The position numbers were made by a program, and so were the translations under genes. The notes below the pieces were generated by a model. It was not told the origin of the DNA and searched no databases. It saw nothing but the letters and a program-made list of their open reading frames with translations. A stretch of DNA of 62,960 bases, counting the filler, from Bigelowiella natans CCMP2755 (lineage: Eukaryota > Protista > Cercozoa): the NCBI GenBank assembly GCA_000320545.1. It is 7 parts of 7 records of this genome, joined end to end, with 100 filler letters (N's around TTAATTAATTAA, not from the genome) between each part and the next. Parts side by side here need not be neighbours in the genome. Positions count along the whole stretch, not along the records: positions 11,371 to 23,218 come from ADNK01003418.1; positions 23,319 to 43,887 come from ADNK01000128.1; 5 more parts are not named here. One strand, 5' to 3'. Every line of letters starts with the position of its first letter. Positions within the stretch are counted from its first letter, which is position 1. Positions 19,301 through 39,284 of the stretch are shown piece after piece.

Positions 19301-20806
19301 TCTTTGTGTTTTTGTACTTTTGTTTATTTGTTTATATCTCAAATAAAATAGGCCGTCGTCTTGAAAGTCCCCGAACGCGTATTCCTCTCCGTTGGCGGTA
19401 ATGCTTATTCCTTGTTTTGTTCCTTTGTACTCGCTGCCACTCTTAACTAGTCTGTTTAGAGAAATCACATTGCCTGCAGCTTCTTCAGAGTACAAAGCTC
19501 CTTGTAGAACAATTTTATGCATCTTTCCTTGCTTGTTTTTCGTAGTTAGTTCGACGTCGCCTGCATAATCCACAAAGAATCCTGTCCCATCTTTGCCAAC
19601 TTCTATGTATCGTGGTTGAATAGGTTTCAACTCGTTGAAGAAGTCGCGGTCGCAGAAGAAGTGGTTGTTGGCTCCGCTGTCGAGAAGGATCAAAGGCTTA
19701 TGGTTGTACTTCAGCGTGTGCAGGTAAGAATTGTCGCGTGCCATCTTATTAATGTAAGAGGGTCTTTGGGAAGGGGAGCCATGATCTATAAAAGAATAGT
19801 GTTTTCCTTTGTTCTGCTTGCCTTCGTCTCTCATCTTGTTTCTGCATTCCTTTTCCCAATGTCCTTTCTTGCCACAGTAATGGCATTTTGTTCTTTTCTT
19901 TAAGTTCAAGAAATAGTCTTCTCTCTTTTGCTTCTTGGAATTGTCTTGATATGCTTCGCTGTTGTATCTGTTCTTTCCTTTGTTGAATTTCCTCTTGTAG
20001 GTCTTCAGCTGACCCGTAAGTTCATTTAGCCTTTTCTCCAAGCCATCGTACATCTTCACGTATTTGTGTTCTGCACTGGTGTGTCCTGCATGTTTCTTTG
20101 AAGGTTTCTGCCCGTCATCTAACGATCGGGAGTTCATGTGGGAGCGGATCATGTCCACTGCAGAGTCGAAGGTAACATCTTTCTTGTTGTTAATGACTGT
20201 TACTATAGTCTCGTATTTTTCTCTAGGTACAAGTCCTCGAAGTAGAGTGGTAAGAGCTTGATTGTCGGAGTATCCTTCGTGCTGTGCTCGAAGTCTTCTG
20301 ATCGTCGAGTCAAGGTCAGAATGATACTTCGTGAAGTCTCCATTGTACTGACCCATGTTTATATCACTTAGCTTCGAATAAAGTTTCCTGACGGCTACAG
20401 GATTGGTAGGCTCGTACTTCTCCAGCAAGGCTGCTAAGGTAACTGCTACGTCTTTGGGTTTTCCTTCGAGTAGATCGAAGAATTTATCAGGAAGGGTAGC
20501 AGTGAGGAAGAATCTTCCTCTCTTTCTTTTGTTTATCTTTTCTTGTGATCCTCTTCCTTCGGGTTTAGGGTTGAGGATGTCGAATTGCTCCTGAGAGAGC
20601 TTGAGTACTTCTCGTCGGTGAGCGGGGTCGGTGCGTACATTGACTTCTGTCACCTTTCCTTCTGTTTCTATGTTGACATTGAAGCATGATTCCAAATCCG
20701 CTGCTTCAAAGGCGGACATTAGCTTGTACATGTAGGGCTTGTAGTTGCTACCATCGTACTTGAGGGTGAAGTTTTTCAGCAGGGAGTCTATCTGCTTTTC
20801 TGACAT
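16364..20806 (-). CDS. Copia Gag-Pol polyprotein, 1480 aa, intact
   Basis: Zn knuckle CHYCGKKGHWEKEC; protease LDSGA; HHCC (HNILGH..CKAC); integrase DDE (IHSDV, RSDGGGEY, NGMSER); RT (YKSRLVARGFTQ, IYGLTQA, FVDD); RNase H (YVDASW, SSGEAEY, ADILTKAL). Confidence 0.97.
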   Translation of the reverse strand: MSEKQIDSLLKNFTLKYDGSNYKPYMYKLMSAFEAADLESCFNVNIETEGKVTEVNVRTDPAHRREVLKLSQEQFDILNPKPEGRGSQEKINKRKRGRFFLTATLPDKFFDLLEGKPKDVAVTLAALLEKYEPTNPVAVRKLYSKLSDINMGQYNGDFTKYHSDLDSTIRRLRAQHEGYSDNQALTTLLRGLVPREKYETIVTVINNKKDVTFDSAVDMIRSHMNSRSLDDGQKPSKKHAGHTSAEHKYVKMYDGLEKRLNELTGQLKTYKRKFNKGKNRYNSEAYQDNSKKQKREDYFLNLKKRTKCHYCGKKGHWEKECRNKMRDEGKQNKGKHYSFIDHGSPSQRPSYINKMARDNSYLHTLKYNHKPLILLDSGANNHFFCDRDFFNELKPIQPRYIEVGKDGTGFFVDYAGDVELTTKNKQGKMHKIVLQGALYSEEAAGNVISLNRLVKSGSEYKGTKQGISITANGEEYAFGDFQDDGLFYLRYKQINKSTKTQRFKSYPMKQPSSIKHAHNILGHIAADKIRDTYAVTEGLPYSKTIKIPKKIFCKACDVAKTKRSPIFDPSAQERMKQHRNKAKIEDDAVKKKQKCVPVIHKKNRMWNRIHSDVKTMPNSMDGYKYFVIFVHEGTRWVTLELMRKKSEVTQKTIQFLKHIRKLPGCGSIDEFRSDGGGEYMSAKLHSWLTSEGIKWVPSTARTPEQNGMSERHIQTIMAKTRAMLEHARLPVGYWSYAAQTAAYLHNVTSHRSTPGRKTPKELLHHEQPNLKNLTTWGCIGVNHIDKELRPAGGMGARGEYVRMLGYDDRFGTFLVATKTLKIRRVRVTKWYHTVFKFPSLKRNKVSDSALAYLYPEGPADADAPEPSSATDELPEDGGPETKAKSKPRRSNRENRGVPGIRYGILGSYYDRLMNIKAPSVQEIEDLPKTYDDAITGDDKKHWIPSTEEELHQLRKLGTFTLVVRPKDTNLVTSKWVFKKKINVDYTIRYKSRLVARGFTQIPGEDFFFSYSPTLSLNSFRIMLAIASILKLKLHGIDILTAFLTGKMDCKVHMEIPKGWKPKTPEEIRLYNSGLPLALLVNKSIYGLTQASAIFSLTLLEHLNAIGFVQLYSDPCLMIMHRQGRIIILSCFVDDICIAYQDKRDLDFVMKRIGDKFEFRDEGELKKTLGIRVGSDNEGNYWISQEDYLTRLAQKYDITPTKRAKTPMITGSKLDEYEEHDKVDQKAYRSIIGAAMYAAVATRPDICYTLSRLASYSQDPRTIHYIAAVRLLQYLVNTKDKRITFKAASKPELKAYVDASWKTCKKTGKSYSGYFISLSNAPVVWKSNKQKVVAMSSGEAEYIALSDICRELVYVTQLLQELKMKIPKPVPVYCDSQAAISIAAKPGFTQKGKNIRIEYHNVRDNYQTKQICINKIPGEDNPADILTKALPGPSNKKHCDFLFPISYREKLTIMLQGTRKRKITTKTLPYKLPRLVGPTSA

Positions 20807-20980
20807 GTTGTTTCGTTCCTGTTTTCTTTGTTTTCAGTGCTTTGGAGGCTTGACCGAAGATTGGCTGAGGGAATGCTGTTGTCGCTTTCAGTTCCTTCTT
20901 CTGGAAGGATGTAGCTGAAGGGGGGGGGTGGGGGGTTTGCTTGGTTCTTTTCTTTGTTGGTTCTCTAGCAAGTCCTCTTG

Positions 20981-20992
20981 AGGCTCATAACC
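20981..20992 (-). promoter_or_regulatory. Primer-binding site GGTTATGAGCC, complementary to the anticodon stem-loop of tRNA-Met (half-tRNA priming)
   Basis: Lies immediately 3' of the 5' LTR. The plus strand reads GGCTCATAACC, the tRNA-iMet anticodon arm, as in Drosophila copia and yeast Ty5. Confidence 0.85.
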
Positions 20993-21350
20993 TTTTAGCG
21001 GACTAGCGGTAGCTGTTTGGCTTTTGTGCGCGGGACTGTGCTGTTGATGTTGGAAAGTCAACACGCGGTCTCGTGTGCTTTTGGATTCTGATGATGACTT
21101 GTGACTTGCGCTGCACGCATGTGCGCATTGGGTTCCGGCGCATTCGCGAAGATTCTCGAATCTTCCAGAATTCTCTCGAATTCTCTCGAGTGTTTCTGGA
21201 AGGTTCTCGAAGCTTCCGGAATGTTCTCGAAGATTCTGGAAGTTCTGAGAACTTCCATGCGCATGTGCGCAGCGCAGCGTGCAGCACGAGTGGACGTGCG
21301 CATGCTGCGACAGCTCCTTGATCGTGGGTGGCGCGGCCAGACCGCTGACA
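20993..21350 (-). repeat. 5' LTR (358 bp)
   Basis: Apparently identical to 14251-14608. Confidence 0.95.
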
Positions 21351-21407
21351 GCCTATGCTGTGCACATGCCATAAACACAATGAGCATCGTAATGATTACT
21401 GCTATAT

Positions 21408-21447
<40 letters not shown>

Positions 21448-21546
21448 CCTGCATGCTGATGTTGAAAATAAGTGCTAACTAACACAGTCGTACATCAACT
21501 CGACCACACTCGCCCGCCTCATATCTGCTATTATTTATGTTTTGAT

Positions 21547-22893
21547 TCATTTCATTTCAGCAAGAATCGACACCAAGTAAGCCTCGCACTCTTCCGCGGA
21601 AGCGTTCGGATTGAGGATCTGCCACTTCCTTTGCGCCTCGACGAGGAGGCCGACCTGCGCGCCTGTCACATGGAACTTTGCCATCAGCTGCTTCCCGTCC
21701 TGCAAACGAGGCACTTTCCATATCTCCATGAGGCCAACCTGCTCAAGCCACGCAACAAAATCCTGGAGATCTCGCTCGGAGAGAGGCGGGTGCGTCGCAT
21801 GACTCGCTGCTGGCGGCGACAAGACGGCTTCGGCCACTCGAACGAGATCTAAAGTCGGGGCCCATAGCTCCTTGATGTTCTCGAGAAGCAGGCCGATCGA
21901 TAGCCGCAGAGAGTCAACCTCGCTAGCGGTCGTTGGGGTCACGACTGGGCCGCTGCTGCCCTTCACCAGAGCGAGCTCCGCGCCGCCTTCCTTGAGCGCC
22001 TTGAAGCTGGAGATCATCTCTCTCAGGGGGAAGCACCCTTGGACCATGGTGTCGACGTCATGGGCGTCCCTGTGAGGGTGTCTGAAAAAGAAGAAGAAGA
22101 AGAAGAAGAAGAAGAAGAAGAGGAAGGAGGAGGAGGAGGAGGAGAAGAAGGAGAGGGACATATCTTGATAAGCAGGAGCAGTGACGTAATCGGTATTTTA
22201 AAAGAAGGAGACGCCGTCTTTACACTGTTCCCACAAGATTGACGCTCTGGTTATCTCCCCCCCCTTCCTCTCGCACTCACACACAAACCACGCACAAACA
22301 CGCACGAATCGCGGCGCGGTTGACGGGTAGATAACCCCATTCATTTATCGTCACTACATCGTTTTCAAATAAAAATAGCGGGGAGAGAGGGAGGGGAGGG
22401 AGGGGGTCCGAAACCTCAACCGACAGCAGTACACACACGCGCGCGCGCGCGCGCAAACACACTCATACACACTCTCACAACGTTCGTGTGCAGATACGTA
22501 CTTTATCCCCTCCGCGAGCATTGCGAACACCAGATTCAGTTTCTTCTTCTTCTTCTTCCCCACCTCGGTCACAAGCCCATGGTACGGAAGTAGGAAGGCT
22601 GCAAGAAGCTTCAACTGCGACGACTCCTCCTCCTCCTCCTTCTCCTCCTCCTCCTCCTTCAGCAACATCTCTTGCATCTTCTCAACCAAGGCCGCGCTGA
22701 GAGACGAGCGTTCTTCCTGGGTGGGGACAAGGAACCGCACGACGGCCCCGGGCAGGGGCTCGACGATGGGCTTGGGCGCCTCGAAGATGATCTGATCGAT
22801 CCCATAGCGCACAAAGCTGCTGAGCATGTGCCCCGGCCGCCCGGGCCCGTTCAAGGCCTTCGAGATCTCTTGGCCGAACCTCTCTCGGCTCAC
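21547..22893 (-). CDS. CCA1: CCA-adding tRNA nucleotidyltransferase (class II), last two exons (22502-22893, 21547-22081)
   Basis: VSRERFGQEISK motif; C-terminal DGKQLM..F..TGAQVG.L...Q.KWQI.NP.A..EEC typical of eukaryotic CCA1; exons splice in frame. Confidence 0.8.
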
Positions 22894-22965
22894 CTGCGAT
22901 GATGATGGCGAACAGTGGTAACGGTGAGTAAGGGGGGGGGGGCAGGTACGCACGTGTCACTGACG

Positions 22966-22998
<33 letters not shown>

Positions 22999-23320
22999 AA
23001 ACGATAAAAATGGCCGAAAGAGACTCAAATCCGAACTGAATCACCTAAATCTTCGTGTTAAAGAAGGATCGTTTGTTAATTCACTCGGTCACTTATTGAG
23101 TTGTATTAAAGCTAGCTGAGTTGCCTTGTTCATTTCACCTTATTAGAACAGAGCTCACTCAAAATAAAGAGGAGCATTTTATTGGTGATAGCTTAATCAT
23201 GGGAATATTAGATATGAANNNNNNNNNNNNNNNNNNNNNNNNNNNNNNNNNNNNNNNNNNNNTTAATTAATTAANNNNNNNNNNNNNNNNNNNNNNNNNN
23301 NNNNNNNNNNNNNNNNNNTG

Positions 23321-23626
23321 ACCCCTCAATCAGGATTTTTCAAGACTGTAGCAGGTTCTTCTATGATTGTTAAGAACCTTATTACAGAACAGGATGTATT
23401 ATCAGCACAATTTGGAGGAAGTGATGTTGAAAACAAATTAGTCGGTTCAGGGTTCTTCAGCAGTCTAGCATCTAAAGTTGGGAAAACTGTGAAAAATATT
23501 GCCTCTAATCCTAAAGTTCAAGATGCCGTTCTTAAAATGGGAGCAAATGTGCTCAAGAAAAAGATGGGAGGTAAAGCATCCGTAAGTGGTGGTGGAATGA
23601 AAAAGAAACTCTCTTCATTATTATAA
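23321..23626 (+). CDS. Virophage major capsid protein, C-terminal fragment
   Basis: The frame is open from the gap: TPQSGFFKTVAGSSMIVKNLITEQDVLSA...KLVGSGFFSSL...SVSGGGMKKKLSSLL. This fits the Sputnik/YSLV-type MCP C-terminus pattern (SG.F....G.S......LT.QDVL.A...LVG.GF..SL, Gly-rich tail). Confidence 0.75.
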   Translation, partial: TPQSGFFKTVAGSSMIVKNLITEQDVLSAQFGGSDVENKLVGSGFFSSLASKVGKTVKNIASNPKVQDAVLKMGANVLKKKMGGKASVSGGGMKKKLSSLL

Positions 23627-23662
23627 ATTTTATATTATAATATTTTTATTAAACATTATAAT

Positions 23663-23974
23663 ATGAAAATATATATTAAACTAATGAAATCACCTCTTAA
23701 AAATAAGAAGCATAGGATGCTCTTTTATGTTGATAAGGGTGGAAGGATAATAAAAGTAAAACACACCGACTTTGGAGATAGTCGGTATAGCGACTTTACG
23801 ATACATAAAGATGAAAACAGAAAAGATAGATACCTGACAAGGCATATGAAGAATGAAGATTGGAGCAAATTCCTGACTGCTGGTTCATTATCTCGTTGGG
23901 TCTTGTGGAATAAACCTGATTTGAAGGATAGTTTAGAGGACTATGCTGATAAATTTAATCTCATCATACTCTAA
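23663..23974 (+). CDS. Tlr6F-like / DUF5754 small viral protein
   Basis: DFGD..YSDFT.HKD..RK.RYL.RH...EDW...TAG.LSRWVLWNKP motif, typical of the family shared by virophages, polinton-like viruses and phycodnaviruses. Confidence 0.75.
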   Translation: MKIYIKLMKSPLKNKKHRMLFYVDKGGRIIKVKHTDFGDSRYSDFTIHKDENRKDRYLTRHMKNEDWSKFLTAGSLSRWVLWNKPDLKDSLEDYADKFNLIIL

Positions 23975-24074
23975 TATCGTTGGTGGGGTCTAAATCCGTG
24001 TTCCTTGCTACTATCTTTCCTATCGTATAACCTATGGAAAAGATAAGTCCTAATATTAATAACACTACAATCAT
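23964..24074 (-). CDS. 36-aa single-TM viral micro-protein (not in the ORF track)
   Basis: MIVVLLILGLIFSIGYTIGKIVARNTDLDPTNDIRV*; hydrophobic N-terminal half; preceded by the same TAATCTAA spacer as the next gene. Confidence 0.5.
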   Translation of the reverse strand: MIVVLLILGLIFSIGYTIGKIVARNTDLDPTNDIRV

Positions 24075-24089
24075 TTAATAAAGATTAGA

Positions 24090-24299
24090 TTATTTTTCGT
24101 CGTCCATCAACATCCTAAAAGCACTATCAGTTAAATCACCAGTGTCATCAAAGGGTTGTTTCATAATATTTAATTGTATCAACAATTTGCTGTTCTCTTT
24201 TATCAGTTTCTTGTTTTGCTTTATCAATTTGTTTATCTCTTTTCTTAATCTTGTTAATCGTAGTTGTAATTGTAATAGTCTAACTATTTCCAGTAGCAT
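24090..24299 (-). CDS. Small coiled-coil viral protein, 69 aa
   Basis: Leu-heptad pattern; tightly packed between neighbouring genes. Confidence 0.6.
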   Translation of the reverse strand: MLLEIVRLLQLQLRLTRLRKEINKLIKQNKKLIKENSKLLIQLNIMKQPFDDTGDLTDSAFRMLMDDEK

Positions 24300-24314
24300 C
24301 TATAATGATTTAGA

Positions 24315-25274
24315 TTAAAAATTTAAATCTACTTCAAAGATGTCTTCTTTGTTCTCGTTTAATACATTAGCAGATTGGTAGTTGCTTTCTCTACTCTCAA
24401 AGAAATTGGTCTTGCCTTGTAAATCCAGTCTTTCCATCCAGGTCAAAGGATTACTCACATTGTGGATTGTATCATAACCTAATTTGAGTAATATGTTGTC
24501 TATTGTGAATTTGATATAGTCTAACATCATATCCGCATTCATTCCTAACAATCTAACAGGCAATGCTTGTGTGATGAAGTCTCGCTCAATACATAGTGCC
24601 TTATCAAACAAGACCGCTACTTCTGCTTGTGATAGTCTCTTCTCTAACTTATTGTATAGCATAATACTGAAACTATAATGTAGGTTCTCATCTCTGCTGA
24701 TAAATTCATTAGATAAAGTTAGACCTTTTAATATACCTTTCTGCTTGAAGTAGTAAATACAAGCGAACGAGGAAGCGAAGAATATGCCTTCAAAGATGAC
24801 CTGACATATCAATTTATGCTGTATGGAGTTGTACAACAAGACCTGTTTCCTACAGAAGTTAATTTTTTGTTCTATGATAGGATTATTCTTTACAGCATTT
24901 ATCAAATCCTCTTTCTCTTTTTTATCTTTTATCAAAGTATCTATCTGTAGATTGTATGTTTCTGTGTGTATATTTTCCATTTGCCTTTGAAAGTCGTAGC
25001 ACATACGAATTTCTAATGCCTTAAACTCATCGTATAGATTCCTATTTATCATTTCATTCACTTCAATATCACTATTCGCAAAGAAGATGAGGGTATATTT
25101 TAAATACTTTTGTTCGTCCTGACTTAATTTGGAGAAGTCATCGGCATCATTACTGAAATCTATTTCTTCGGCGGTCCAGTATCCTGCTTGTTGTATCTTG
25201 TAGGCATTCCATATGTCTTTGTGCCTGATTGGAAAGAGAGAAGTTCTATCAACATCTTTGAGTATACTATTCAT
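24315..25274 (-). CDS. Ribonucleotide reductase class Ia small subunit (R2), 319 aa
   Basis: FPI..DIW..YK...WTAEEID, FFANSD, ENIHTETY (radical Tyr), EGIFFASSF, ISRDENLH, KTNFFE.R..NYQ, C-terminal F...NF. Confidence 0.96.
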   Translation of the reverse strand: MNSILKDVDRTSLFPIRHKDIWNAYKIQQAGYWTAEEIDFSNDADDFSKLSQDEQKYLKYTLIFFANSDIEVNEMINRNLYDEFKALEIRMCYDFQRQMENIHTETYNLQIDTLIKDKKEKEDLINAVKNNPIIEQKINFCRKQVLLYNSIQHKLICQVIFEGIFFASSFACIYYFKQKGILKGLTLSNEFISRDENLHYSFSIMLYNKLEKRLSQAEVAVLFDKALCIERDFITQALPVRLLGMNADMMLDYIKFTIDNILLKLGYDTIHNVSNPLTWMERLDLQGKTNFFESRESNYQSANVLNENKEDIFEVDLNF

Positions 25275-25307
25275 ATATATATTATACTACATATTTTTAT
25301 ATTTAAT

Positions 25308-25538
25308 TTAATATTGTGTTTCAACACCTTCCGAGGGTGTTCTAAAGTGTTGAAAATGAAATTTGGAATAAATATATATTAACAATTTATTATTTGACAT
25401 ATTACATATATTCTTCTTAATCATAAGATAGCATCGACTTTGCTTCCATCTTCCACACTGACCTGTCAAAACCACTCCAGCGTCATCCTTTCTGTATGTG
25501 GTGAAATTGTCCGGGAGCTGCTTCACGATTAACTCCAT
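25308..25538 (-). CDS. Hypothetical viral protein, 76 aa
   Basis: ATG in AT-rich context within the packed viral gene array; no motif recognised. Confidence 0.4.
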   Translation of the reverse strand: MELIVKQLPDNFTTYRKDDAGVVLTGQCGRWKQSRCYLMIKKNICNMSNNKLLIYIYSKFHFQHFRTPSEGVETQY

Positions 25539-25792
25539 ATTAACTTTATCATATTCCTATATTATTAATTTACATATTTTTTTTTGAAATTTAATTTGTT
25601 GAGGAACTTAAGTTTAGGACTATGGTTAAGTCTGCGGAAATTGTGAGTTAAACACCCTGAATAACTTTGATGTAGGTATTCATCTATCATACTTATTATT
25701 CCTTTGGTTAATCCCTTGTGTATGAGTATTCGTTCTATTTCTTTATCCTTTAAAATAAACTACATATATTTTATATCTCACATTATGTATAT

Positions 25793-26877
25793 ATGGACCA
25801 GAAACAACCTTATAGTAGTGAAAGCAGTACTGATGATGATGATACTGATACTGAAACTGAAATGCCTAAAAAGTCAAACGGAAAAAGATAGTCAAACGAA
25901 AGAAGAAACCAACCATACTGGGAAGTTTAATCGGCAAGAAGAGTAAGGATTTAGTAGATGAACTGACCAGGGAGAAAAAGCAAGACCCTGAAGTAAAAGC
26001 AACCCACAACGATGCCTATGGGTATCCAGGTAAGCGAGGACAGATGGACTTGCTCTATCTACCTAATGATAGTGGGTTTAGATATTTATTAGTAGCAGTA
26101 GATAATCATACAAAACAAACTGATGCTATACCTCTACGATACAGAACTGCTGAAGCGGTAAGAAAAGCGATAGACAAGATATATTACGAGAACAAGGTAT
26201 TAAAACCGCCGAAAATCCTTCAGGTAGATGCTGGTAGTGAGTTTAAAAAAGGATTGGATGGGTATTTGAGAGAGAAAGGTATATATTTAAGAAGAGCAGG
26301 TGTTGCAAGGCATAGTCAACAGGCAAATGTGGAAGCACGAAATAAGAGTATCGGTAGTATCATCATTAAAACTCAGTTGGTGAAAGAATTAGAGAACGAT
26401 AAAGTAAGTAAGCAGTGGTTAAAGTTATTACCTGACATATTGAAGAAGTTGAACGAGAATGCTAAGGTGAAGAAGTTGAAGCAGACAGGAGAAGTTCCTT
26501 GTAAGGAAGGTGGTGATTGTGATTTGTACGAGGTCGGCAAGAAGGTGAGATACAAATTGGATTATCCTGTGAATTTTAAAGGAGAGAAACAAATAGGCAA
26601 TTTCAGGGAGGGCGACATAAGATATTCGTTGAAACCGCACAAAATTGAAAACATATTATTATTACCTGACCGACCAGTAAGATATATTTTGGAAGGTGTT
26701 TTAGACAAAACTTTCAGCAAGAATCAACTGAAACCTGCTGAAAACGAAATAGTCAAAAAAGCAATTGAGAAAAAAACACCGAAACCGAGGGAGAAGTGGA
26801 CCGATGAACCTGTTGAAATACGGACAAGTAATCGAAAAAGAAAGCAAGTTGATAGGGGATTTTTCGTGGATATTTAG
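25793..26877 (+). CDS. Retroviral-type (rve) integrase of virophage/polinton type; N-terminus split by a 1-nt frameshift at ~25870
   Basis: DDE triad QMDLL / LQVDAGSEF / NVEARNK plus RYLLVAVD. The frame stays open upstream of 26044 to ~25872, and restoring one A in the A5 run joins it to ATG 25793. Confidence 0.88.
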
Positions 26878-26939
26878 TGAAAATGCCAAGAAACTCTTAG
26901 AAATGGCGAAATTTCAATTCAGCAGAAGGGTGATTTGTG

Positions 26940-28847
26940 ATGGACAACAGCTTCTGGAGCTTACTCGGACTGAGCGATTGCAATCGCGATGCTCCCACAG
27001 GAACAGAATGCAGTGTGGATGAGTATGCAAATATTCTAGAGACAAATTCATTCATACTGTTGGCAGGATTTGTGCTCTTTTTCGTTTTTGCTCTGTGTGT
27101 CGTTGTATTTGGATGTTTTTGCGGACGGAGTAAAAGGCCAAGAACCTCTTCTGAGAAAGCTGACCATTCCAATCCTTCGACTAGAAAATCAGGAAACATT
27201 GATGCTGTTAAAAAACCTGTTGTTAAAAAACCTGTTGTTAAAAAACCTGTTGTCAAAATACCAGCACTAACAAAGAGTAAGAAAGAAGAACTGAAGAGAC
27301 TGCGAGACCAATACGAAAAACTCACTGTAGATATGAGAAAACAAATGGAATCTGACATAAATGATGGATTTGCTGGGGACGAGAAAGAAGCAAGAAGAAA
27401 AGTCAACGAAATGCCCCAAATCGCCACAAGAGTTTGGACAGCAAAAGCAATACGGGGTGCGGTTCAGCTAAAATTGAAAGTGTTGAGGGATAAGTTCCAG
27501 CAAAAGGTCAATCAAGGATACATCATACAGAAAGACCTTGACAACAGTCTAAAGGACATCCATCAAGGGGAAAATATTGATATTTCCACAAAAAAATGGA
27601 TAATAGACTACAGCGAATTATGGCAGGAATGGCAGGAACACAAGCAATTAGAAATGGAACACACGGAGTTAGATAGGTTCGTGGTGCCAGGATGGATGCA
27701 CGAATATGCTCTTTGCACTTGTAAGGCATTTCAAATTGAAGACGAATACACAAAAGCACAGGAACGACAGAAGAAAGAAAAGGAGGAAGCAGAGAGAAGA
27801 AAAAAAGAAGAAGCAGAAAGACAGCGACTGGAAGCAGAAAGAAAGAAGAAAGAAGAAGCACAAAGAAGGAAGAAAGAAGAAGCACAAAGAAGGAAGAGAG
27901 AAGAAGCGGAAAGAAGGAAGAAAGAAGAAGCGGAAAGAAGGAAGAAAGAAGCAGAGCGGAAACAAAAAATTTTGGAGGGAAAGATGTGGGGGAAAATCCC
28001 TGATATGAATACTGAGAGGAGTGGTTTGGGTGTGGCCGTTGGGGATGGCAAACTGTTTGCTGTTGGTGGGTATGATGGTAGTAATCGTCTCAACTCTGGG
28101 GAGTATCTGGATTTGAATAATATGGAAGCGGGGTGGACGAAAATCCCTGATATGAATACTGAGAGGAGTTGTTTGGGTGTGGCTGTTGGGAATGGCAAAC
28201 TGTTTGCTGTTGGTGGGAGTGCTGGTTATAAAAAAAAACACAAATCTGGGGAGTATCTGGATTTGAAGAATGTGGATGCGGGGTGGACGAAAATCCCTGA
28301 TATGAATAGTAAGAGGCAGGTTTTGGGTGTGGCTGTTGGGGGTGGCAAACTGTTTGCTGTTGGTGGGGATGATGGTAGTAATAATCTCAAATCTGGGGAG
28401 TATCTGGATTTGAATAATATGAAAGCGGGGTGGAAGAAAATCCCTGATATGAATACTAAGAGGAGTGGTTTCAGTGTGGCCGTTGGGGATGGCAAACTGT
28501 TTGCTGTTGGTGGGTTTGATGAAAAATCTGGGGAGTATCTGGATTTGAAGAATATGTCGGCGGGGTGGACGAAAATCCCTGATATGAATACTAAGAGGGA
28601 ATATTTGGGTGTGGCCGTTTGGGATGGCAAACTGTTTGCTGTTGGTGGGTATTATTATGAAGACGGTTGTAATTATCTCAAATCTGGGGAGTATCTGGAT
28701 TTGAAGGATGTGGGTGCGGGGTGGAAGAAAATCCCTGATATGAATACTAAGAGGAGAGAATTGGGTGTGGCCGTTGGGGATGGCAAACTGTTTGCTGTTG
28801 GTGGTAGTGCTCACAAATCAGGGGAGTATCTTCGCATCGCTATGTAG
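26940..28847 (+). CDS. Membrane-anchored Kelch beta-propeller protein (TM - helical domain - EK/ER single alpha-helix - 6 Kelch repeats), intronless
   Basis: TM FILLAGFVLFFVFALCVVVF plus Cys cluster; KKPVV three times; KKEEAERR repeats; six W.KIPDMNT.R..LGVAV.DGKLFAVGG...SGEYL units. Confidence 0.92.
   Translation: MDNSFWSLLGLSDCNRDAPTGTECSVDEYANILETNSFILLAGFVLFFVFALCVVVFGCFCGRSKRPRTSSEKADHSNPSTRKSGNIDAVKKPVVKKPVVKKPVVKIPALTKSKKEELKRLRDQYEKLTVDMRKQMESDINDGFAGDEKEARRKVNEMPQIATRVWTAKAIRGAVQLKLKVLRDKFQQKVNQGYIIQKDLDNSLKDIHQGENIDISTKKWIIDYSELWQEWQEHKQLEMEHTELDRFVVPGWMHEYALCTCKAFQIEDEYTKAQERQKKEKEEAERRKKEEAERQRLEAERKKKEEAQRRKKEEAQRRKREEAERRKKEEAERRKKEAERKQKILEGKMWGKIPDMNTERSGLGVAVGDGKLFAVGGYDGSNRLNSGEYLDLNNMEAGWTKIPDMNTERSCLGVAVGNGKLFAVGGSAGYKKKHKSGEYLDLKNVDAGWTKIPDMNSKRQVLGVAVGGGKLFAVGGDDGSNNLKSGEYLDLNNMKAGWKKIPDMNTKRSGFSVAVGDGKLFAVGGFDEKSGEYLDLKNMSAGWTKIPDMNTKREYLGVAVWDGKLFAVGGYYYEDGCNYLKSGEYLDLKDVGAGWKKIPDMNTKRRELGVAVGDGKLFAVGGSAHKSGEYLRIAM
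27987..28835 (+). repeat. Six near-identical Kelch-coding tandem repeats (147, 150, 147, 135, 156 bp + final partial)
   Basis: Units start at 27987, 28134, 28284, 28431, 28566 and 28722; aaaatccctgatatgaat and ggcaaactgtttgctgttggtgg are invariant. Confidence 0.95.
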
Positions 28848-28891
28848 ACTGCTTCCGCACACACACCGGGTCCAGTCTGGAGAAAATATGG

Positions 28892-29089
28892 TTATTTATA
28901 GCCATCTACAACTTCGCTCATTAGACAAATGTGGACTTCCATCAGTTTATCTCTCAGTTTGCGATAGAATTCAGGATTCAGTTCGGCTTTTAGTTCATCT
29001 ATTACGAGGACGATTTCACTAAGTTTATAGTCAACATCATAGATTTTATCTGCTGTGCTACTTTTATTTACTTGATTAATATTACTCAT
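28892..29089 (-). CDS. Hypothetical viral protein (~65 aa)
   Basis: MSNINQVNK...VVDGYK*, AT-rich viral codon style. Confidence 0.5.
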   Translation of the reverse strand: MSNINQVNKSSTADKIYDVDYKLSEIVLVIDELKAELNPEFYRKLRDKLMEVHICLMSEVVDGYK

Positions 29090-29194
29090 ATTAATCTTAT
29101 AGTGAGACAATTCTTTAAATAGAAATCATAGTTGGATGTTTGTAAAACTGGAATCCTTTTGCTAATAGCTTATGTTGTTAAGTATGTATGTTGT

Positions 29195-29345
29195 AGCAGT
29201 CGCATATCTATTAGTATATCGCTTCGTAATAGCAGTGTATTAGCACGGCATATCGCTTCGTAATAGCAGTCGCATATAGCAGTCGCATATCGCTTCGTAA
29301 TAGCAGTCGCATATTTATCAGCATATTGCTTCGGCACGGCATATG
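29195..29345. repeat. Subterminal modular repeat block A (AGCAGTCGCATAT / CGCTTCGTAAT / GCACGGCATAT)
   Basis: Short units repeated 3-5 times in shuffled order. Confidence 0.8.
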
Positions 29346-29355
29346 TGTCTGTTTT

Positions 29356-29973
29356 TCAAACGACATTCTTTTTTAGTTGTGTTATTTTTTCTGGATAATT
29401 GTATGATAGATAAATGGAATATTTGTTTTTGTATTTTCTTTTTAACAAATCATAACAGAAATCAAATAATTCTTTGTGTCTTTTAGAAATGTTTTTGAAT
29501 TTTCTCATTTTTTTAATTTTCAAAAACAACTTGATTAATCCTTCAAAGCCTAATTTATTTTTGTAAATTTCAAAAAAATCGTGGAAACTGATTGATTTTT
29601 TAGCTCTTAATTTGAGACTTAAACTGTGCGAATATTTTGTTTTGTTTAATTGTTGTAAAACTCGTTTTTTTTCATTTAGGTAATTGTAAAGACCATATGA
29701 AAAGAGTTTTTCGTTCGTTGAAAAGTTGGCAGATGCTTCCACATCAACATTTTTATATTCACTTAATTCACTATATTTGTTTTTGAGGTATATGACATTA
29801 CAAGTTTCTAAATTTATGAAACTTCTACAATATCGTTGACAAGAAATCATACATTTTTTATGCTTACCTATCGCACAACTTTTCAGAGATTTCCATTCTT
29901 CAATAGCATTCTCAATGTCATTAGATTTAGAAAGAATTAATAATTTTTTCACCAATTCGTTAGATTTGTTCAT
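29356..29973 (-). CDS. Hypothetical Lys-rich viral protein, 205 aa, with an N-terminal Cys cluster
   Basis: Long, very AT-rich ORF; A..EW...C....KC..C...C...N..T.N. Confidence 0.6.
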   Translation of the reverse strand: MNKSNELVKKLLILSKSNDIENAIEEWKSLKSCAIGKHKKCMISCQRYCRSFINLETCNVIYLKNKYSELSEYKNVDVEASANFSTNEKLFSYGLYNYLNEKKRVLQQLNKTKYSHSLSLKLRAKKSISFHDFFEIYKNKLGFEGLIKLFLKIKKMRKFKNISKRHKELFDFCYDLLKRKYKNKYSIYLSYNYPEKITQLKKNVV

Positions 29974-30045
29974 AACTAACTTACATATAACACATTTCTT
30001 TATATACTTTTTCGTATGAGCATCTCACAACACAATGCTATCAAA

Positions 30046-30200
30046 CCAGTCGCATATTAGTCAGCAGTCGCATAGCACGGCACATAGCACCGCAAATCGC
30101 TTCGCACGGCACGGCACATAGCACGGCATATCGCTTCGCAACATACATACATACATAGCACGGCATATCGCTTCGCACGGCATAGCACATCGCATATAAT
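30046..30200. repeat. Subterminal modular repeat block B (AGCACGGCA(C/T)AT / CGCTTCGCA / CAGTCGCAT)
   Basis: Same unit vocabulary as block A; CAGTCGCAT recurs at 30441. Confidence 0.8.
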
Positions 30201-32116
30201 GACATCGTATGCTTCTTCATTTTTTTTCAGACCCCCACTTTAATTAGTGTTTTTTTCTAACCTCATTCATTTTATAACTAATGAGGGCTTATGGGGCATT
30301 TCAAAAACCAAACTTTTTAATATATATATATATATATATATTAAAATACTTACATACTTTATATATATAACCCCCGCCCCCGGAAAACACCCCCTGGGAA
30401 ACATGAGTATAATAAGGTAATATGATACAGCATAATGATACAGTCGCATAATGCTGTCGCATCGCTTTGCGAGCAGGTGGGCTCTGCCCACATCGCAGAT
30501 ACCGCCATTGGCGGTTATAATAATTATTATTATTATTACTTACACATCACACACACCATCATCATGAAATCATGTGCTGGTGTCTCCAACCGACTCGTGT
30601 TGCTAATGGCATTGCAACTGCTTGCTTTTGCAATGGTGTTGATTCATGACATGGACATTGCTGCCAAGTGCAGTGCCAGTGCATGCTTCGTTGAAGGGGT
30701 CTAGGCATTGCAGTCTCCTCGCCATCAATGGTTTATCAATCCAGCAATCGATGATGATGATGATGATCATGATGATGATACCGAGAACGGTCGTTCACAT
30801 GTGCGTTGCCACAGCACGTTCTCCAGCCCACACGTCAATGCGAGCCAAGGCATTGCATGGATTTTTGGAGCTCCAGGAACGGTGCTACCATGAGTTGCCA
30901 CTGTCTCAATGTGTTTCCGTTCTTTTGGGCCCAGGGCAAGGATTTTTGCTTCAATATGCGCAGTGGTAGCAGCAGAATCATCTCCCAAGTCTGGAACCAC
31001 AGGATCGAAACAGTGTGACTTTGGGGATCAGATTGTGATCTGTGTAGTCGATCTCGTCCACACATGAGCGCATGAACAGTCAGTTAACATGCCCGCAATG
31101 GTTCCCCCTCTCACCTACTATAGTTACTTGATGTCTGCATCCCCATGCTTCTCTTCCTCCCAAATTTCGTCATCGGGCCCACAGGGGCTCACGTCTTCAT
31201 GCTCCACTGTTTTGTCTTTTTCGATGTCGAAACCCACTTTCTCGACCTCCTTTCGAACTCTTCTTCCGCACATCATATTCCTCTAATTGAGCAAGTCAAC
31301 ATGGGCCCTCCAATTCATCCTTCTCTTCAGTCAGGTGTGTGCGAGGATTCGAAGAGATGCTCATCATTGTCAGGTTCGTAGTGCACACACTCCTCACCCT
31401 CACCACATTCCCTATCTACTCAATCTAACAAGCTAGCATTTAACATCAACTCTTGAACTCCTGTCTTGGCCATCAATGGTTCTGATTATCATCCAACCGC
31501 ATGTGTGCATTGGTGCCGATCCACCCCGGTCCTCCTGCGAGCACGAATGTTTGTTTGTTTTTAGTTTAAGTTAGATGTTAGGAGTCCTTTGGAGTTGTCG
31601 TTGGGTCAAAACACCCATGCCAGGCGGAAGACTCAGGCGTCGCAAATGGGCCTGCTTTTCTTCGATTTATCGGAGGCGACTGGCCGGTTTTCATCTATAA
31701 TTCGCATGGCAGGTGCAGAGCGTGGGAGCGGAGCGTCATACTCGCTTTCATGCTGAGCAGAACCAATTGCTGATACAGCTCATCTATCACTCCAGCGCTG
31801 AGAACGGGTGCTTGGAGCCCACCCTATCCACTTGAATGCTATTCTAGAGTAAGCACTCTCTTACGGCTAAGCACAAGCGGCTCAGTTAAACAGTAGCAAC
31901 CGCAGCCGATTGGGGGGTTGCTGTTGCAGTCATAGGATCTTCTCCAAAAGGAAGGGTTCGACGCATTATGGGTATGGGAAATATTTTGATTCTCACACAT
32001 CACCAGGGGTTGAATAAAATACATTTTCCTATTTTCCAGCCGTCAAAACCCCAACCAAAGCTTTGCCGGTCTACACGCCACGATGCAAAGCTGTAGCTAG
32101 CACTGCTGCATGCTTG

Positions 32117-33384
32117 ATGCTACTCGCCCTTATCCTTGTTTTGGAGTGGCCCAGAGCGTGCTCTCCTTCGGGATCTCCAAATGACGGCGATATTATCTTG
32201 CAAATTGAAGCAGAGAGCGATTCAGAGAGGTATAGCATTTCTACCTGCCATAATCGAGTAGATACTCTAGATAAGGGGAGACAGAGTAATGATAAGGAAA
32301 TTTGAACTCATGGCACCTGCTTTATATATTTGCTTTTAGTAAGTCACAACTTCAAGATATAGTGCGGAAACAGCAGGTTAGACACTGAGACTAAAATTTA
32401 TGAAGAATTTTTAAAGCAAGAATAATTTTCGTCGGAATTGCCCAGGAAATGGTTTGTCTGACGAAACTGTATGATATATTTCAGGAACGAATCAAGCAAC
32501 TTGAAAATGATTTATTAGCTGCTAATTCCGGACCTCGTGTAAGTTTAGAGCTGATGACGTCTGCTAATGACTTACATCAGCAGAAAGAAGGGCATCCGAA
32601 TACGAGCACCCTTCTCTTGATACCAGGTTTTGGTTGTAACAAGACAAAAACTTTTAATATCACACTTCGCAACTTAAGGAGCATCATGCAGAATACTAAA
32701 TCTAGCAGTGTGGATTGTCTTTTGGGGAGCTATGTAGCCCGTGATCTTTACTTTAAGGAGGAGTACACCCGCAAAATAATAACAGAAATAGAACAGATGT
32801 GCTACGTAACATATGCACCAGGAACGCAATATGCGGATTGGGAAAGATTCGTCCACCCAATGCTTCTGAAGAAAGCTGCATACACATATGTGATGCTCCT
32901 TGCAGATGACGTGGAGCTACTTAAATTTGACTTAGATCAGGCGATTCAGGCCATGCAACGGTGGGGTATGGACGTCATCTCACCTTCGGTGCACGGTTCT
33001 GTGCACCCAACCACACGGTATGATAAAAGAAGAGACCCAGCCTCGATTCTGAACGTCACCATGATAGAGGCATTCACGATGGTGTTTAATGTGAGAGCAT
33101 GGCAGTGCTGGTGGCAAGTATCTGACCACATATACCTCAGCAGAGGATGGGGTTCTGATCTCATATTCCGTGATCACTGCTTGAAAGTACACCCAGATAT
33201 AACCCTTGGGGTTTTGCCAGGGATGGAAGCTAAGCACTACGGCCATTGTTCTGGCTCGGTTGGAAACGTAAAATTACGTCCCAACAATAGGCATAAGCGA
33301 TCAAATATACAGTGGCATGAATGGCGACGTTTCAACTATAATCCTCCCCGTGGTGTGATAATCAACACGATCAAGCTCGAATAA
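32117..33384 (+). CDS. DUF707-like GT-A-fold putative glycosyltransferase with signal/anchor (exons 32117-32229, 32340-32376, 32485-33384)
   Basis: YTYVMLLADDVEL..FD...I..M...G.DVISP, IEAFTMVF...AWQCWW.......GWGSD match the DUF707 pattern; in-frame splicing; hydrophobic N-terminus. Confidence 0.65.
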
Positions 33385-33879
33385 GTTCGTCCTCGGATTC
33401 TCATTTTCATATTGTTATCACCACGTTGATTTTAAAGCCTGCGATAAAAATGCTTCGACTTTATTTGATGCCGTCTATTTGAGCAGCCCAGAAAGCATAT
33501 CTTACTTGTGTGATGCGATGTGCTGCCATTCCCAAAGGATAGACACATTCTTGACGGTGACGATGATGATTTGTGAGACGGATGCAATGAAGTGATTGAA
33601 CATTTTTAATAGTCTTCTCAATGTAGCCATGCAAAGCAGCGGCTACAGCGCTTGTGGTACGTTTGTCTCTGCTCTCACGTGCATCATGCAATTAGAAGCA
33701 TCTGTGCATGTCCTGTCGTCGATGTCCCGCAGTGCGCGCAGCGGTCCATGCTTCTTGTCCAGCTATTGTTCGTGGCATCGTCTCATCGTTTCGATTCATG
33801 ATTGCACTCAATTGGTTTTCCAATCTTAGCTGTTGGTGTTTGTGTGCTTTGCATTGAAGGAGATGATCCATGTCTTTCA

Positions 33880-34780
33880 CTTCCCTGAATTTGCAAGGAA
33901 GAATGAAAACGAAGGGTCGACAGCGGGAGATGTCTGGGATTGGTGTTTGATGAAAAGCTGACTTTTGAAAAACACGACCTTGCCACACATCCAACATTGC
34001 AGAAGAAGAGAACAAGGTTTCCATTGAGGTCGTGTTCGAGATTGCTTGAGCCGTCAAGTGTCACATTGAAACTTTGCAAAACGTGGTGCATTGCGACTAG
34101 CAGGTGTGCAGTGCCCATGTGGAGATCTCGAAAAGTGCACAGACACACAAGGTGATGGATTCCACGAAATCACAAACTTTGAAAAGGATTTCGGGACTGC
34201 CTGGCTAGCTGGACCTGTTTCCAACGACATTTCTCACGTTCTCGCTGCCACACTGCTGCAAACTGCCACCACGGTGACGAACAAAAGTGCAATGTGCAAA
34301 AACTTCATTGCGTGCCAACGCTTGGATCGATGATGGTGATGGCTGCACATTGGACGAAGAAGTGCAAATTTGGAGTGGCTTTGGTTTCCAAACACATTGA
34401 GGATGGAAGCCAGTGCAAGAAAGCACCTCTGTTTCGCCGCCCAGTTTGATCGCCAACGACCCACTGGGCGATGAACTTCCCACCATTCGAACGACAAAAT
34501 CAGCACTCAAAATAGATCTCAAAAAACGTCGTGAAACAAACAAGTTTGCTGCTTCACCTGCTTTTGACGAAGAAAAATTGTCCAGTGATTTGACCAGAGC
34601 TGCACAGCTGAAACACTTTGGTTTCCTTCCGTCCTCTCGCATCACAGGCATCAAGTTGAAATTGCCAAGCATTGCCATCTCATGGATGCGTGCCATCTGC
34701 AGGGTCGGCGACGTCCTGAGGACACGTGCAGGTTCTGTGTGCAACGATGTGGTGGTGCATGATGAGCAGTGCGTGTGACG
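33880..34780 (+). pseudogene. Decayed non-LTR retrotransposon (LINE; I/Jockey-like RT thumb and C-terminal region)
   Basis: RCLGLVFDEKLTFEKH...LKLCKT...RCAVPMW...LKRISGLP corresponds to LINE consensus (K/R)YLG..D.KLTF..H / LYK / YA.P.W / LR.I.G; stops and frameshifts present. Confidence 0.7.
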
Positions 34781-35295
34781 CAACATGGCAACAGTGTGCA
34801 GAGTGCATTCAACGTGCATGTGCGTGCTGTGTGTGCAGCTGGCTAGCTAGTGCGTGTTCACACATGCTAGCATGGCTTGTCGTTGATTCTTTTAGCATGG
34901 GATGTGAACTCCGTGATTGGATCATCTAGTCGCATGCGTCAATGTCAGTCTGAAGACACGTCACACGCACTATGTGCATGCGGTGTCCATGCTAGCATGG
35001 AAAAGAAACATTGAAACATTGATTGCAATTTGATGTTCAACACAATGCATGCACTGCGCTGCTGGCGTGAAGATGCGCCTACAGTTTTTTTCCCTAGCCA
35101 ACGTGTTCAATTTCCATCATCAGCAAAATTGTCACGTGTGTAGACGTATGCCATGCTCGCTTGGTTCTGATTTGCACTGTCAAAATCCGCCATCATTAGC
35201 ATCATCTAATTGACATATTACAATTTGAAGTACCATCGTAATCCCAGGGCTCTATTTCGAAGATGGAGTTCATGTGTGCTTGGTCTCGGTTTTGG

Positions 35296-38086
35296 TTAGC
35301 TACCCTCAGTTGGCTTGCCACCCTCAGTCAGACCAAGACTTTTGCAATGTTCGTTGCAAACGTGTCTGTCAAAAAAAGCTTGAATGCCAGCTTTCTTCAA
35401 ATTAGTGCTTCCGAATTCCCTCTGCTCACAGTGAATTGATGGATCAGTGAAGATGTAGCTCTCTTTTGAATCAGCACTTTCAACCGAAATTCCTTGCACA
35501 TCAGCGATCATGAGGAAACCATTTGTGAATTCATGCGACCAATGAATGAAAGCTTCGACTGTCGGATTGTTGACACTATGTTGGAAGTTGTTGGTCCATC
35601 TCTCAAAATCTCCCCCTTCAAGTAATCTTTCGAGAACCCCCACTCTCTTCCGTCCTTCCTTGTCTTTGAAATGGACGAGGCTAGTTTTTAGGTAGCGAAG
35701 CTTTATCCCCCACTCGACACTTTTTTTGCTGAACTCTCGAGCAAGAAATGCTGCAACTGTTTGCGCTTGGACGTCAAATTTAGATCTTATTTCATCATCT
35801 ATATTATCGGTGTATTTTTGGTGAACTTTTAGAACGTAGTAAATTGGTTTGTCGAAGGACACATCTGTGGCTTTGTAGGCGCTGCGGACAGCCCCACGGT
35901 CGAACTCCTCATCAGCAACTACAAATTGCCGAATCTTTTTCGAATCTTTAATGTGCATCGGATTCTTGAGGTCCTCTGCCTTTGTGGGAAAATGCAACGT
36001 TGATTTGGCCACAATCTTGGCATCGGGTTTGTCCTTCACCGTAGCTCCGATTTTTGAATCTGTACATTCAGTACCATCTGACTCTTCCTCGGTGATTGAA
36101 CCTAGTACCTTTTTGTGATACTTGGCAAGCTTTCGGACGCCATCACCATCCTTCCCCATCGAAGCACTCGAGGCAATGGTGATGGAGTCTATCGTGGTCT
36201 TCACTGCAATCTCTATGATTTCACCAGCCTCTCCTAGTTTCCGAGTAAGAATATGATCATCCTCATCTTCGCCGAGAAGCTCATTGTATCTTTTGATCAT
36301 GTTATCTGTTTCGTTACCAATTTTCAAAAAAATTATTTTGGCACCAAAACCCTTAACTAGCTTTTCGAGAACTTCCTTAGATCTCCTCCCGTCACTGTCG
36401 AAATCTTTGAAATTATCCCTCCATTGCGGCTCGAAAAAAGAACCATGGGATGGAGCATCTCCACAGAAGAATACTATCTTATTAGGAATCCTTGCCTCCC
36501 ATTTCAGATCTAACAGTGCCTGCAGCCCTCCAAAGACATCTTCGTGGTAGTCATATCCATTTTTTGTCTTCACTGCAGCAACCATTTCTGAGAATTCTTT
36601 GCTGTCCTTACTGAACGGAAACTTGTACATTCGCTCATCTCTTTGCGATTCCTTCTCCTGTTTGATTGCCACATGTAAGTGTCCTCGTATCCATGGAATG
36701 ACTCGCACGCAGCACCAAAAAACTCAAAATCAATGTAGCACTTACGCGGTAGTCGGTGTAGCCCACGAATCCGAACTGAATGTCTGCATCACGCCCAATG
36801 CATCGCAGTGCCTAAAAATAAGCAGTATACACAAACCAATATTTGTGAATTGTAGCGAGTAGGAAGAAGTTGTTGGAATCGAAAATGTTGTGTACCTCGT
36901 CCTTTATTTTTATTATGGCATCCTTGGCAGCTTCAATGTATTTCTCCATTGATAACGTGCAATCTAAAAGGAACGCGATTTGTGCCTTCCTAGCATTTTT
37001 CAGCTCTCCCAACTTCTTTTGGAGTCGTTTATTTAGTTGTCGTTCTCTCGCATACATGAATTCTTTGGTTCCTTGCAAAATGTCCTTCAATTTTTGGAGC
37101 GTGAAAAGCTTCACATCTACATCTAATGCTCCATGAGTCAGTTTGTAAATTAATTTTATAATTTTTATCTTTTCCGCTCGTTCCGGGTCAAAGGGACCCG
37201 GACCCGGCTGCGGCTTCCCTCGGTCAAGAGTGATAACCATTCCGGCAGAAGGATACTTCGATCCTTTTTTTTTATTCAATCCGAGTATCATGACTCTGAC
37301 TTTTTTCATTCTCCAATTTTTAGGAATATTACCCCTCACATTTGTGGCGCGAAACATTACACTCTCTTTTTGATCAGTTGTGATGAAGCCTGTCCCTTTT
37401 GTAAAGTCATAATTTGTGATATATCCCTTAATGCTATTATCGGGTGGTGACTTCGAAGCCTTCACTGCAGATGCGTGGAGATCTTCGTCTTTGGTGATAT
37501 AATACTCAACAGCAACTTCATCATTTTTGCTAAAGGGTCTGTAGTGGACACGAGAGTGCAAGAAGTACACTACTCTTCCGAGACCAATGTCAACAAGCCC
37601 TCCTTTCTGGCCTAATTTGATTATTGTGCCATTGCCTTTGTAGATTACCCTTTGTGGGCTTTTGCGTGGGCTTTTGCTTCGGCTTCTGCTTCGGCTTCTG
37701 CTTCGGCTTCTGCTTCGGCTTTTGCTTTCCCACGTAGATTTCCATAACTCCTCGATTTTCGCTTTCCAATATTTATTCAGAGCATCCACTGACATTCCGG
37801 GGTTTTCAGACTTAACCAGGGCCATCACTGCTTGACCTACGGACTTCGAAAATTGATAATAGCTAGGAACACTTCCACAGCTCTTCCATAACTGTCCAAT
37901 TCTCGTCATCTTGTTTTTATTCAGAACAGACCCTGACATTCCTGGGTTTTCAGACTTTACCAGGGCCATCACTGCTGGACCCACAGACTTCGAAAATTGA
38001 CCATAGCTAATATTCTTAAGTGCAGAATCGCCATGTTTGGATTCGTTGTGTTTCATGACCATACCAGCAGGAACATCAGCTGACAT
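35296..38086 (-). CDS. Alpha-kinase (eEF2K/MHCK family) with vWA domain and N-terminal 2x HMG-box-like, RS repeat and 2x cold-shock/OB domains (exons 36896-38086, 36746-36811, 35296-36657)
   Basis: vWA: FLLDCTLSM, FGFVGYTDY, EDV.GGL, GDAPSHG. Alpha-kinase: F.RGAVR.AY, YVLK, Q..A..LA.EF, LE..L.G.F..W.NN, AF.HWS......MIADVQG, FTDPSIH, G.TN....GI..FF..H.CN..C. Exons splice in frame. Confidence 0.92.

Positions 38087-39244: not shown

Positions 39245-39284
<40 letters not shown>

Follow-up and report, generated by a model that had tools for sequence, protein, structure and literature searches.

A copy of the Bigelowiella natans provirophage family with ribonucleotide reductase and Kelch genes, and spliced antisense RNA from sister copies

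Gene content of the island

We analysed a 62,960-nucleotide stretch (the window) of the genome of Bigelowiella natans CCMP2755 (GCA_000320545.1), in which seven parts of seven records are joined by six identical spacers of 100 bases each (44 N, 12 bases, 44 N). Between one of these spacers (23219..23318) and position 30554 lies an island of ∼7.2 kb that carries the end of a virophage capsid gene, a Tlr6F gene, a ribonucleotide reductase small subunit (R2), an rve integrase and a Kelch gene, together with four small open reading frames (ORFs) without family, and that is almost certainly a provirophage of a family already known from this host. The spacer forms the left edge of the island and its length says nothing of the true size of the gap; the left part of the element falls beyond it, and to its right an N-free contig runs up to 43887. 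The island has a GC content of 0.36, against 0.455 in the right flank (30555-43887) and 0.491 in the left contig (11371-22997), and its Tlr6F, R2, rve and Kelch ORFs are all uninterrupted. A sequence-only reading of this DNA had described an AT-rich, intronless endogenous virophage with a Sputnik-type capsid, a Tlr6F-like gene, R2, a DDE integrase, Kelch cargo and subterminal repeats, a gene set now borne out by profile and identity matches and by sister copies. The extent that it gave, 23319..30520, stands on the left, where the bound is the spacer, but the right end lies 34 bases further.

The capsid gene is represented by the last 101 codons of a major capsid protein (23321..23626, plus strand). 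By itself this tail matches no Pfam family and no virophage structure in the Protein Data Bank (PDB), so the capsid profile search that had been proposed as a check fails on the fragment; it succeeds on the full-length protein. Of 255 candidates in a search for longer proteins containing the tail, two matched, each with 100% identity along it; one of them, Bigna1/144261 (P0001, 581 aa), is a B. natans model whose residues 481-581 the tail equals. P0001 matches both Sputnik capsid domains (PF21915 and PF22031, E 9e-33 and 8e-35), and its residues 291-510, a span that takes in the first 30 residues of the fragment, align to Sputnik V20 (PDB 3j26, E 1.9e-17), while no match to mavirus structure chains was found at E up to 1. 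Membership in Maveriviricetes is judged mainly on a virophage capsid, along with penton, packaging ATPase, cysteine protease, a genome of 15-45 kb and association with a giant virus (PMC9952930). As judged by Pfam models rather than the profiles of the International Committee on Taxonomy of Viruses, and by way of the full-length paralog P0001, the element has a virophage-type major capsid protein.

Downstream of the capsid lies the 103-aa Tlr6F gene (DUF5754; 23663..23974, plus strand), which matches PF19058 (E 2.8e-14), the family to which the name Tlr6f is applied in PMC12220804. The R2 gene (24315..25274, minus strand) encodes a full-length class Ia protein of 319 aa (PF00268, E 3e-78), and its alignment with mouse R2 (E 6.8e-80) spans both proteins from end to end. 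In this alignment the residues that we take to be the iron ligands and the radical tyrosine are kept. Sister copies of R2 are likewise full length, with 1-5 residue differences, and the best identity to phage records is 44-46%.

The integrase core frame (25870..26877, plus strand) matches rve (PF00665, E 2.7e-8 / 1.2e-9), lacks a chromodomain, and has the catalytic residues D60, D120 and E155 (D-D35-E) at 26047, 26227 and 26332, all kept in an alignment of 16 sequences. Its N-terminal codons (25793..25891, plus strand), which match the start of the sister integrases P0023 and P0024, are out of frame with the core: the first ∼27 codons are one base out of register relative to the sisters. Contigs built from reads of two DNA runs, X1 and X6, have one extra base near 25877; read contigs drop rare variants, and the frameshift may be a true mutation confined to one copy, or the assembly may be wrong at this point. 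Because its integrase is frameshifted as assembled, this copy would likely need the integrase of a sister copy to move. A fourth integrase model, P0050 (aug1.2_g1171), shares the C-terminal residues of this copy and is probably the model of the window's own integrase.

The accessory Kelch gene (26940..28847, plus strand; Kelch_1, E 1.3e-42) encodes a 635-aa protein with a hydrophobic N-terminal stretch, a charged coiled coil and six Kelch-type repeats, the N-terminal half being copy-variable. Beyond it lie two subterminal repeat arrays, an inner one at 29194..29345 and an outer one at 30047..30194 (both plus strand); a 13-mer of these arrays occurs seven times in the window, in every case within 29214-30175, against 0.10 expected.

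Membership in a known family

The proteins of the island match annotated B. natans models at 86-100%. The EukProt set includes R2 itself and one flanking host protein, eight more B. natans accessions cluster with R2, and the paralogs are spread over many scaffolds. When the gene order of sister copies is inferred from accession order, capsid and R2 are two numbers apart for all four capsid models, three of the four integrase models stand directly next to R2, and the sister Kelch gene falls beyond the capsid, at its opposite side. The long core contig has a depth of 477 in X1 and 540 in X6, or 6.0x and 6.8x the host-flank values of 79.5 and 79.1, which puts the family at about 6-7 copies, depth being a rough measure. 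Because the models are identical or nearly so, the accessions cluster and the depth is 6-7 times that of the host, we regard the island as a single member of a B. natans family with several copies. One gene expected of a virophage is found in a sister copy: the N-terminal part of P0003 matches the PF21507-positive penton of L004, a locus in the environmental record G002 described below (E 7e-19).

The finding of provirophages in B. natans is itself already known, having been in print since 2015, when they were reported by Blanc, Gallot-Lavallee and Maumus (as given in PMC6723459, PMC5127031, PMC11172284 and PMC6905037). Reviews count 38 virophage-like elements of 100 bp to >30 kb, six of them with terminal inverted repeats, and describe them as low in GC and mutually very similar, with an expressed integrase; a role in defence against giant viruses has already been proposed for them (PMC6723459, PMC5127031, PMC11172284). 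The island has the same host, nuclear genome, low GC, near-identical copies, virophage capsid and integrase. The sequence-only reading was right that provirophages are known in this species, but the undescribed lineage that it supposed is not supported: B. natans models equal the proteins or come close to them, and the family has been described, the B. natans virophage being placed with YSLV5 in clade Vp.cl15 (PMC6905037).

The right terminus and its junction with host DNA

The element ends in a terminal sequence (30485..30554, plus strand) that is common to many loci, with the junction at 30554/30555 and loose contig ends at 30554 and 30556. Divergence into various flanks at 30554/30556 is seen in contigs from all three DNA runs and in the raw reads of an RNA run, and some copies share two bases past 30554. 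A junction contig (30527-30741) was recovered in X1 and X6 at single-copy depth and without differences. Integration at 30554 is thus well supported, short of proof by a spanning read. The earlier claim that the island is contiguous with spliced host genes can be kept in part: host DNA is joined on the right, but the left edge is a spacer, and the right-hand neighbour is at most a putative spliced gene.

The right end has no inverted counterpart in the window, including 22900-23218, and a scan of viral contigs with a 20-base terminal pattern gave no match. The end sequence has about twice the depth of the core (1138 vs ∼540 in X6), as inverted repeats would give, although solo terminal remnants also inflate this depth. 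Such remnants were observed in all three DNA runs as terminal pieces of 54-69 nt standing alone within single-copy host contigs of 1.8-12 kb; they are possible excision scars or miniature derivatives.

The Kelch slot and TpA hypermutation

The first 280 residues of the Kelch protein have a single relative among 3309 candidates, the B. natans model P0049 (90%), while P0053, directly downstream of an integrase, has another N-terminus before the same repeats. Since these N-termini differ and the contigs from DNA reads fork at 26868, the position downstream of the integrase appears to be an exchangeable slot; the endogenous mavirus-like element EMALE04 likewise has an exchangeable repeat gene at its end (PMC10945749). 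In the searchable text of the literature, which excluded the 2015 primary description, we found no mention of Kelch cargo in B. natans virophages.

P0049 contains no tyrosine in 651 residues, compared with 19 in the window copy, and 18 of its 28 single-base differences from the window are TA-to-CA or TA-to-TG (nine each), although this type makes up 9% of possible transitions (p ∼1e-12 for the excess). The Kelch repeats carry the motif GEYL in all six window repeats and in P0053, but GEHL in all six repeats of P0049; the change therefore runs from tyrosine to histidine, P0049 being the mutated copy. A single-copy DNA contig with 28 differences across 27422-27775 is present in both DNA runs. 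The window core is not depleted in TpA (observed/expected 0.88), and the capsid, R2 and integrase paralogs retain their tyrosines. By eye, P0214, a sister of the 65-aa ORF described below, shows the same TA-to-CA/TG trend. A preprint reports TpA hypermutation of viral insertions in B. natans, with TA-to-TG/CA changes on both strands and a virophage region as one of its two targets (10.64898/2026.01.13.699255); the scaffold of P0049 differs from the one named there.

RNA over the element

The only raw-read RNA run, X24 (60-nt reads, of which about 6 in 100 were used; strain and condition unstated), has a depth of at most 0.77 in 11 bins over 23319-26871, and of 94.6 at 28810-29132. The non-templated poly(A) at 29105 is what a Kelch-type transcript of one copy or another would leave. 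A poly(A) end at 30220, which lies next to a run in the genome, may reflect internal priming, and 12 molecule ends at 26845 may be either starts or ends. No splice joints were found in X24. Minus-strand reads cross from host flanks into the element end (30508-31070), three of them with poly(A) at 30508, and host transcripts may end inside the element terminus.

A second kind of RNA came from assembled contigs. In X15, a set of marine metatranscriptome contigs, nine joints lie over 23375-26432, eight of which fit minus-strand GT-AG or GC-AG introns, and both DNA runs have zero depth at these joints. A capsid scan of metagenome contigs, with 205 candidate stretches, found two more cases, L012 (1-3569) and L013 (1-1358), which are mosaics of short pieces with alternative exons and with joints that are largely common to both and to X15. 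This exon-mosaic structure indicates that L012 and L013 are RNA assemblies, and their 22-25 differences from the window over ∼840 positions imply that they derive from sister copies or from another strain; the three sources may stem from campaigns that are not independent. Together they mark the footprint of a spliced minus-strand RNA over 23319..26549, with 12-13 exons here. When the contigs were aligned without a splice-site prior, 19 of 23 junctions (11 of 13 distinct) fell at minus-strand GT/GC-AG and none at plus-strand GT-AG, compared with at most 4 of 13 in 50,000 draws of random junction placement. The internal exons have a median length of 62 nt. Of R2, 31% is retained in the exons, and stop-to-stop frames in L012 reach 168 aa at most.

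In L012, fragments of six genes follow one another: integrase, R2, Tlr6F, capsid, penton and ATPase, the last two of which are absent from the window. The penton fragments in L012 and L013 match the L004 penton (E 1e-5), and a 36-residue fragment of L012 matches the L004 ATPase (E 4e-7), which itself has only sub-threshold Pfam matches. For the maturation protease, tblastn against L012 gave no significant match; a stretch that we presume to be a protease-like motif, recognized by eye, is unconfirmed.

GT/GC-AG splicing implies transcription in the nucleus. Since noisy splicing has been reported for B. natans, at levels on which accounts conflict (PMC6142364), read-through transcription with cryptic splicing is the likelier reading of this RNA. 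A silencing or guide role would be speculation, and we think it rather unlikely that the backward integrase-to-ATPase RNA, with its dozens of noncoding exons of ∼60 nt, keeps the virus latent, guides TpA hypermutation and explains much of the reported 'high expression'. We found no description of spliced antisense RNA from endogenous virophages in a literature search that excluded the 2015 primary description, and the word 'antisense' is absent from the hypermutation preprint (10.64898/2026.01.13.699255). Such RNA would alter the way in which unstranded RNA-seq is interpreted for endogenous virophage expression, and it is a candidate for the RNA guide on which that preprint speculates.

Comparison with other virophages

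Mavirus and its endogenous relatives (EMALEs) in Cafeteria burkhardae share with the island an rve integrase, nuclear integration, many copies and a variable repeat-protein gene near one end. The D-D35-E feature of the integrase is common to both, although the window copy is frameshifted upstream of the core, and a mavirus-type capsid was not found here, P0001 matching Sputnik V20 and no mavirus structure. EMALEs carry rve-INT, EMALE07 carries R2, and types 1 and 2 have Tlr6F (PMC8547959). Two further features of the comparison, a target-site duplication and a protein-primed polymerase B, would fall in the left part of the element, behind the gap. Induction and protection are known for mavirus and EMALE04, whereas the B. 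natans element is known here from sequence.

Single-sequence scans of viral contigs with the capsid tail, full capsid, integrase or R2 gave no relative, whereas an alignment-based integrase search gave 11 viral loci; nine of these were taken on, two weak, high-GC matches being left out, and four records were examined. In two of the four a Sputnik-type capsid stands beside this integrase family: G002 (IMG/VR, 21.3 kb) and G004 (29.4 kb), with integrases 34-37% and capsids 33% and 26% identical to those of B. natans. The locus in G002, L004, is a 21-kb environmental virophage with a Prim-Pol-helicase, an rve-chromodomain integrase, an ATPase, a protease-like gene, a penton and a capsid, the penton and ATPase adjoining the capsid. 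Its integrase thus ends in a chromodomain, which that of B. natans lacks. R2 was found in none of the four records, and neither R2 nor Tlr6F above the cut-off in G002 or G004. Both are known as environmental sequences, host integration being documented in this comparison for the B. natans element. The combination of genes is less unusual than the sequence-only reading claimed, given the Sputnik-type capsid with integrase in two of the four records and the occurrence of R2 with rve in EMALE07.

Interpretation and alternatives

Taken together, the island is very probably the right part, 7.2 kb long, of a single copy from a multi-copy B. natans virophage family that was likely integrated by its rve integrase and, by analogy with mavirus, would be activated by a giant virus. 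By this analogy the integrase would join the inverted ends of a linear genome to host DNA, and the element would then stay latent in the host chromosome until switched on by giant-virus infection alone, silent but inducible provirophages having precedent (10.1101/068312, PMC10945749). In uninfected cells it would likely be handled as ordinary chromatin, its read-through RNA cryptically spliced into noncoding pieces, with the Kelch gene in its exchangeable slot near the end likely read by host polymerase and some copies eroded by TpA-directed A-to-G mutation. Infection would lead to expression of an intact copy through the giant-virus machinery, followed by its copying and packaging. To form a reductase, R2 must pair with a large subunit. 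Because the window encodes none, R2 would borrow that of the host or of the giant virus, and the pair would presumably raise the supply of dNTPs. We rate the chance that the family is still inducible by some giant virus as slightly better than even, and it is doubtful that this particular copy is intact enough to reactivate.

Several points weigh against this reading. The left end, the target-site duplication and the penton, ATPase and protease genes of this copy all lie outside the window. The junction contig has 28 letters on its element side, under the bridging bar of 31, and the third DNA run, X2, has no contig past 30559. TCTA, the late promoter motif of ChlorV and CroV (PMC13196603) and a feature of mavirus and EMALEs, is not enriched in the B. 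natans element: it stands at -15 before one of eight genes and at -34 before another, the capsid promoter being outside the window, and because it is so sparse there is no sign of the isolated ChlorV as helper. Finally, reviews call the B. natans elements transcriptionally active, some of them highly (PMC6723459), unlike X24 and the silent mavirus, and such RNA as came from the core here is spliced and runs antisense.

Some of the evidence would also fit a relic, that is, a recent burst of integration that the host is neutralizing and that has no defensive role. The frameshifted integrase, the tyrosine-free P0049 with its TA-directed changes, the terminal remnants inside host contigs, the targeting of a virophage region by active hypermutation (10.64898/2026.01.13.699255) and the spliced, noncoding core RNA all point this way, whereas the R2 copies are full length with few differences, the capsid, R2 and integrase paralogs retain tyrosines, and reviews list six seemingly complete copies (PMC6723459); we therefore hold a relic to be possible but tentative. 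A capsid-bearing transposon that spreads through nuclei in the manner of Polintons, without a giant virus, would likewise be multi-copy and integrase-bearing with many distinct flanks, and would account for capsid and integrase expression without infection, as given in reviews (PMC6723459). It is improbable in view of the Sputnik-type capsid, of core RNA that runs antisense to capsid and integrase, and of the statement, in PMC10945749, that no particles from integrated virophages have been seen without a giant virus.

It is very improbable that the island comes from a virophage that was free or a contaminant, or that the assembler wrongly joined a repeat to host sequence: the gap at its left edge, the junction contig three letters under the bar and its absence in one of three DNA runs would allow it, but the identical junction at single-copy depth in X1 and X6, the numerous further host flanks that start from this terminal base, the paralogs on many scaffolds and the nuclear transcription implied by GT/GC-AG splicing all argue otherwise. 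Equally remote is the view that the lineage is new to description, which would hold only if the 2015 list covered another family of this genome; the nearest capsids that are not B. natans-like reach at most 41% identity, with the top four nameless, and R2 is missing from the environmental integrase records, but the island is identical to B. natans models, and the B. natans virophage has been classified in Vp.cl15 (PMC6905037). We thus return to a giant-virus-activated member of the known family. The provirophage find adds little by itself; the weight lies on the spliced antisense RNA and on testability, since a giant virus of B. natans that encodes both reductase subunits, ChlorV, is now in culture (PMC13196603) and the ten-year-old defence hypothesis has thereby become directly testable.

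Minor features and neighbouring host genes

Right after the capsid stop, an AT-rich hairpin (23628..23668, plus strand; 18-bp stem, 5-nt loop) is a possible 3' end signal; its stem length was reached in none of 300 shuffles, while its fold (z -2.38) was equalled in 4 of 200. No hairpin was found downstream of the other eight gene ends, and the rule of mimivirus-style hairpin gene ends, applying to one of nine, was rejected. The four small ORFs, all on the minus strand, are a 69-aa coiled-coil ORF (24090..24299) with only sub-threshold coiled-coil Pfam matches, whose exact sequence is absent from the protein collection searched; a 76-aa ORF (25308..25538) without Pfam match; a 65-aa ORF (28892..29089) in the high-copy end region, with a depth far over the core and a cluster of 14 members including a B. 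natans model; and, between the two repeat arrays, a 205-aa ORF (29356..29973) without Pfam match that is present in fewer copies (∼4 by contig depth) and for which the best score in an Atlas search, 0.82, was uninformative.

Adjoining the gap on its left are 220 AT-rich bases (22998-23218, GC 0.35), unmatched elsewhere in the window, which could belong to a host intron or to a foreign element. Next to them, two exons of a host gene (21547-22897, minus strand) resemble what we take to be the C-terminal half of a CCA-adding enzyme, an assignment unconfirmed by Pfam or PDB; a scan of the window with six motifs, made on the idea that the element lies within an intron of this gene, gave no upstream exons. 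Farther left, an uninterrupted 1480-aa ORF of a copia-type retrotransposon (16364-20806, minus strand) contains gag, protease-like, rve and RVT_2 regions, with no pair of long terminal repeats around it in a self-BLAST of 15001-21600. To the right of the island, host ORFs encode a DUF707 family protein (32449-33384, plus strand) and an alpha-kinase (35296-36630, minus strand).

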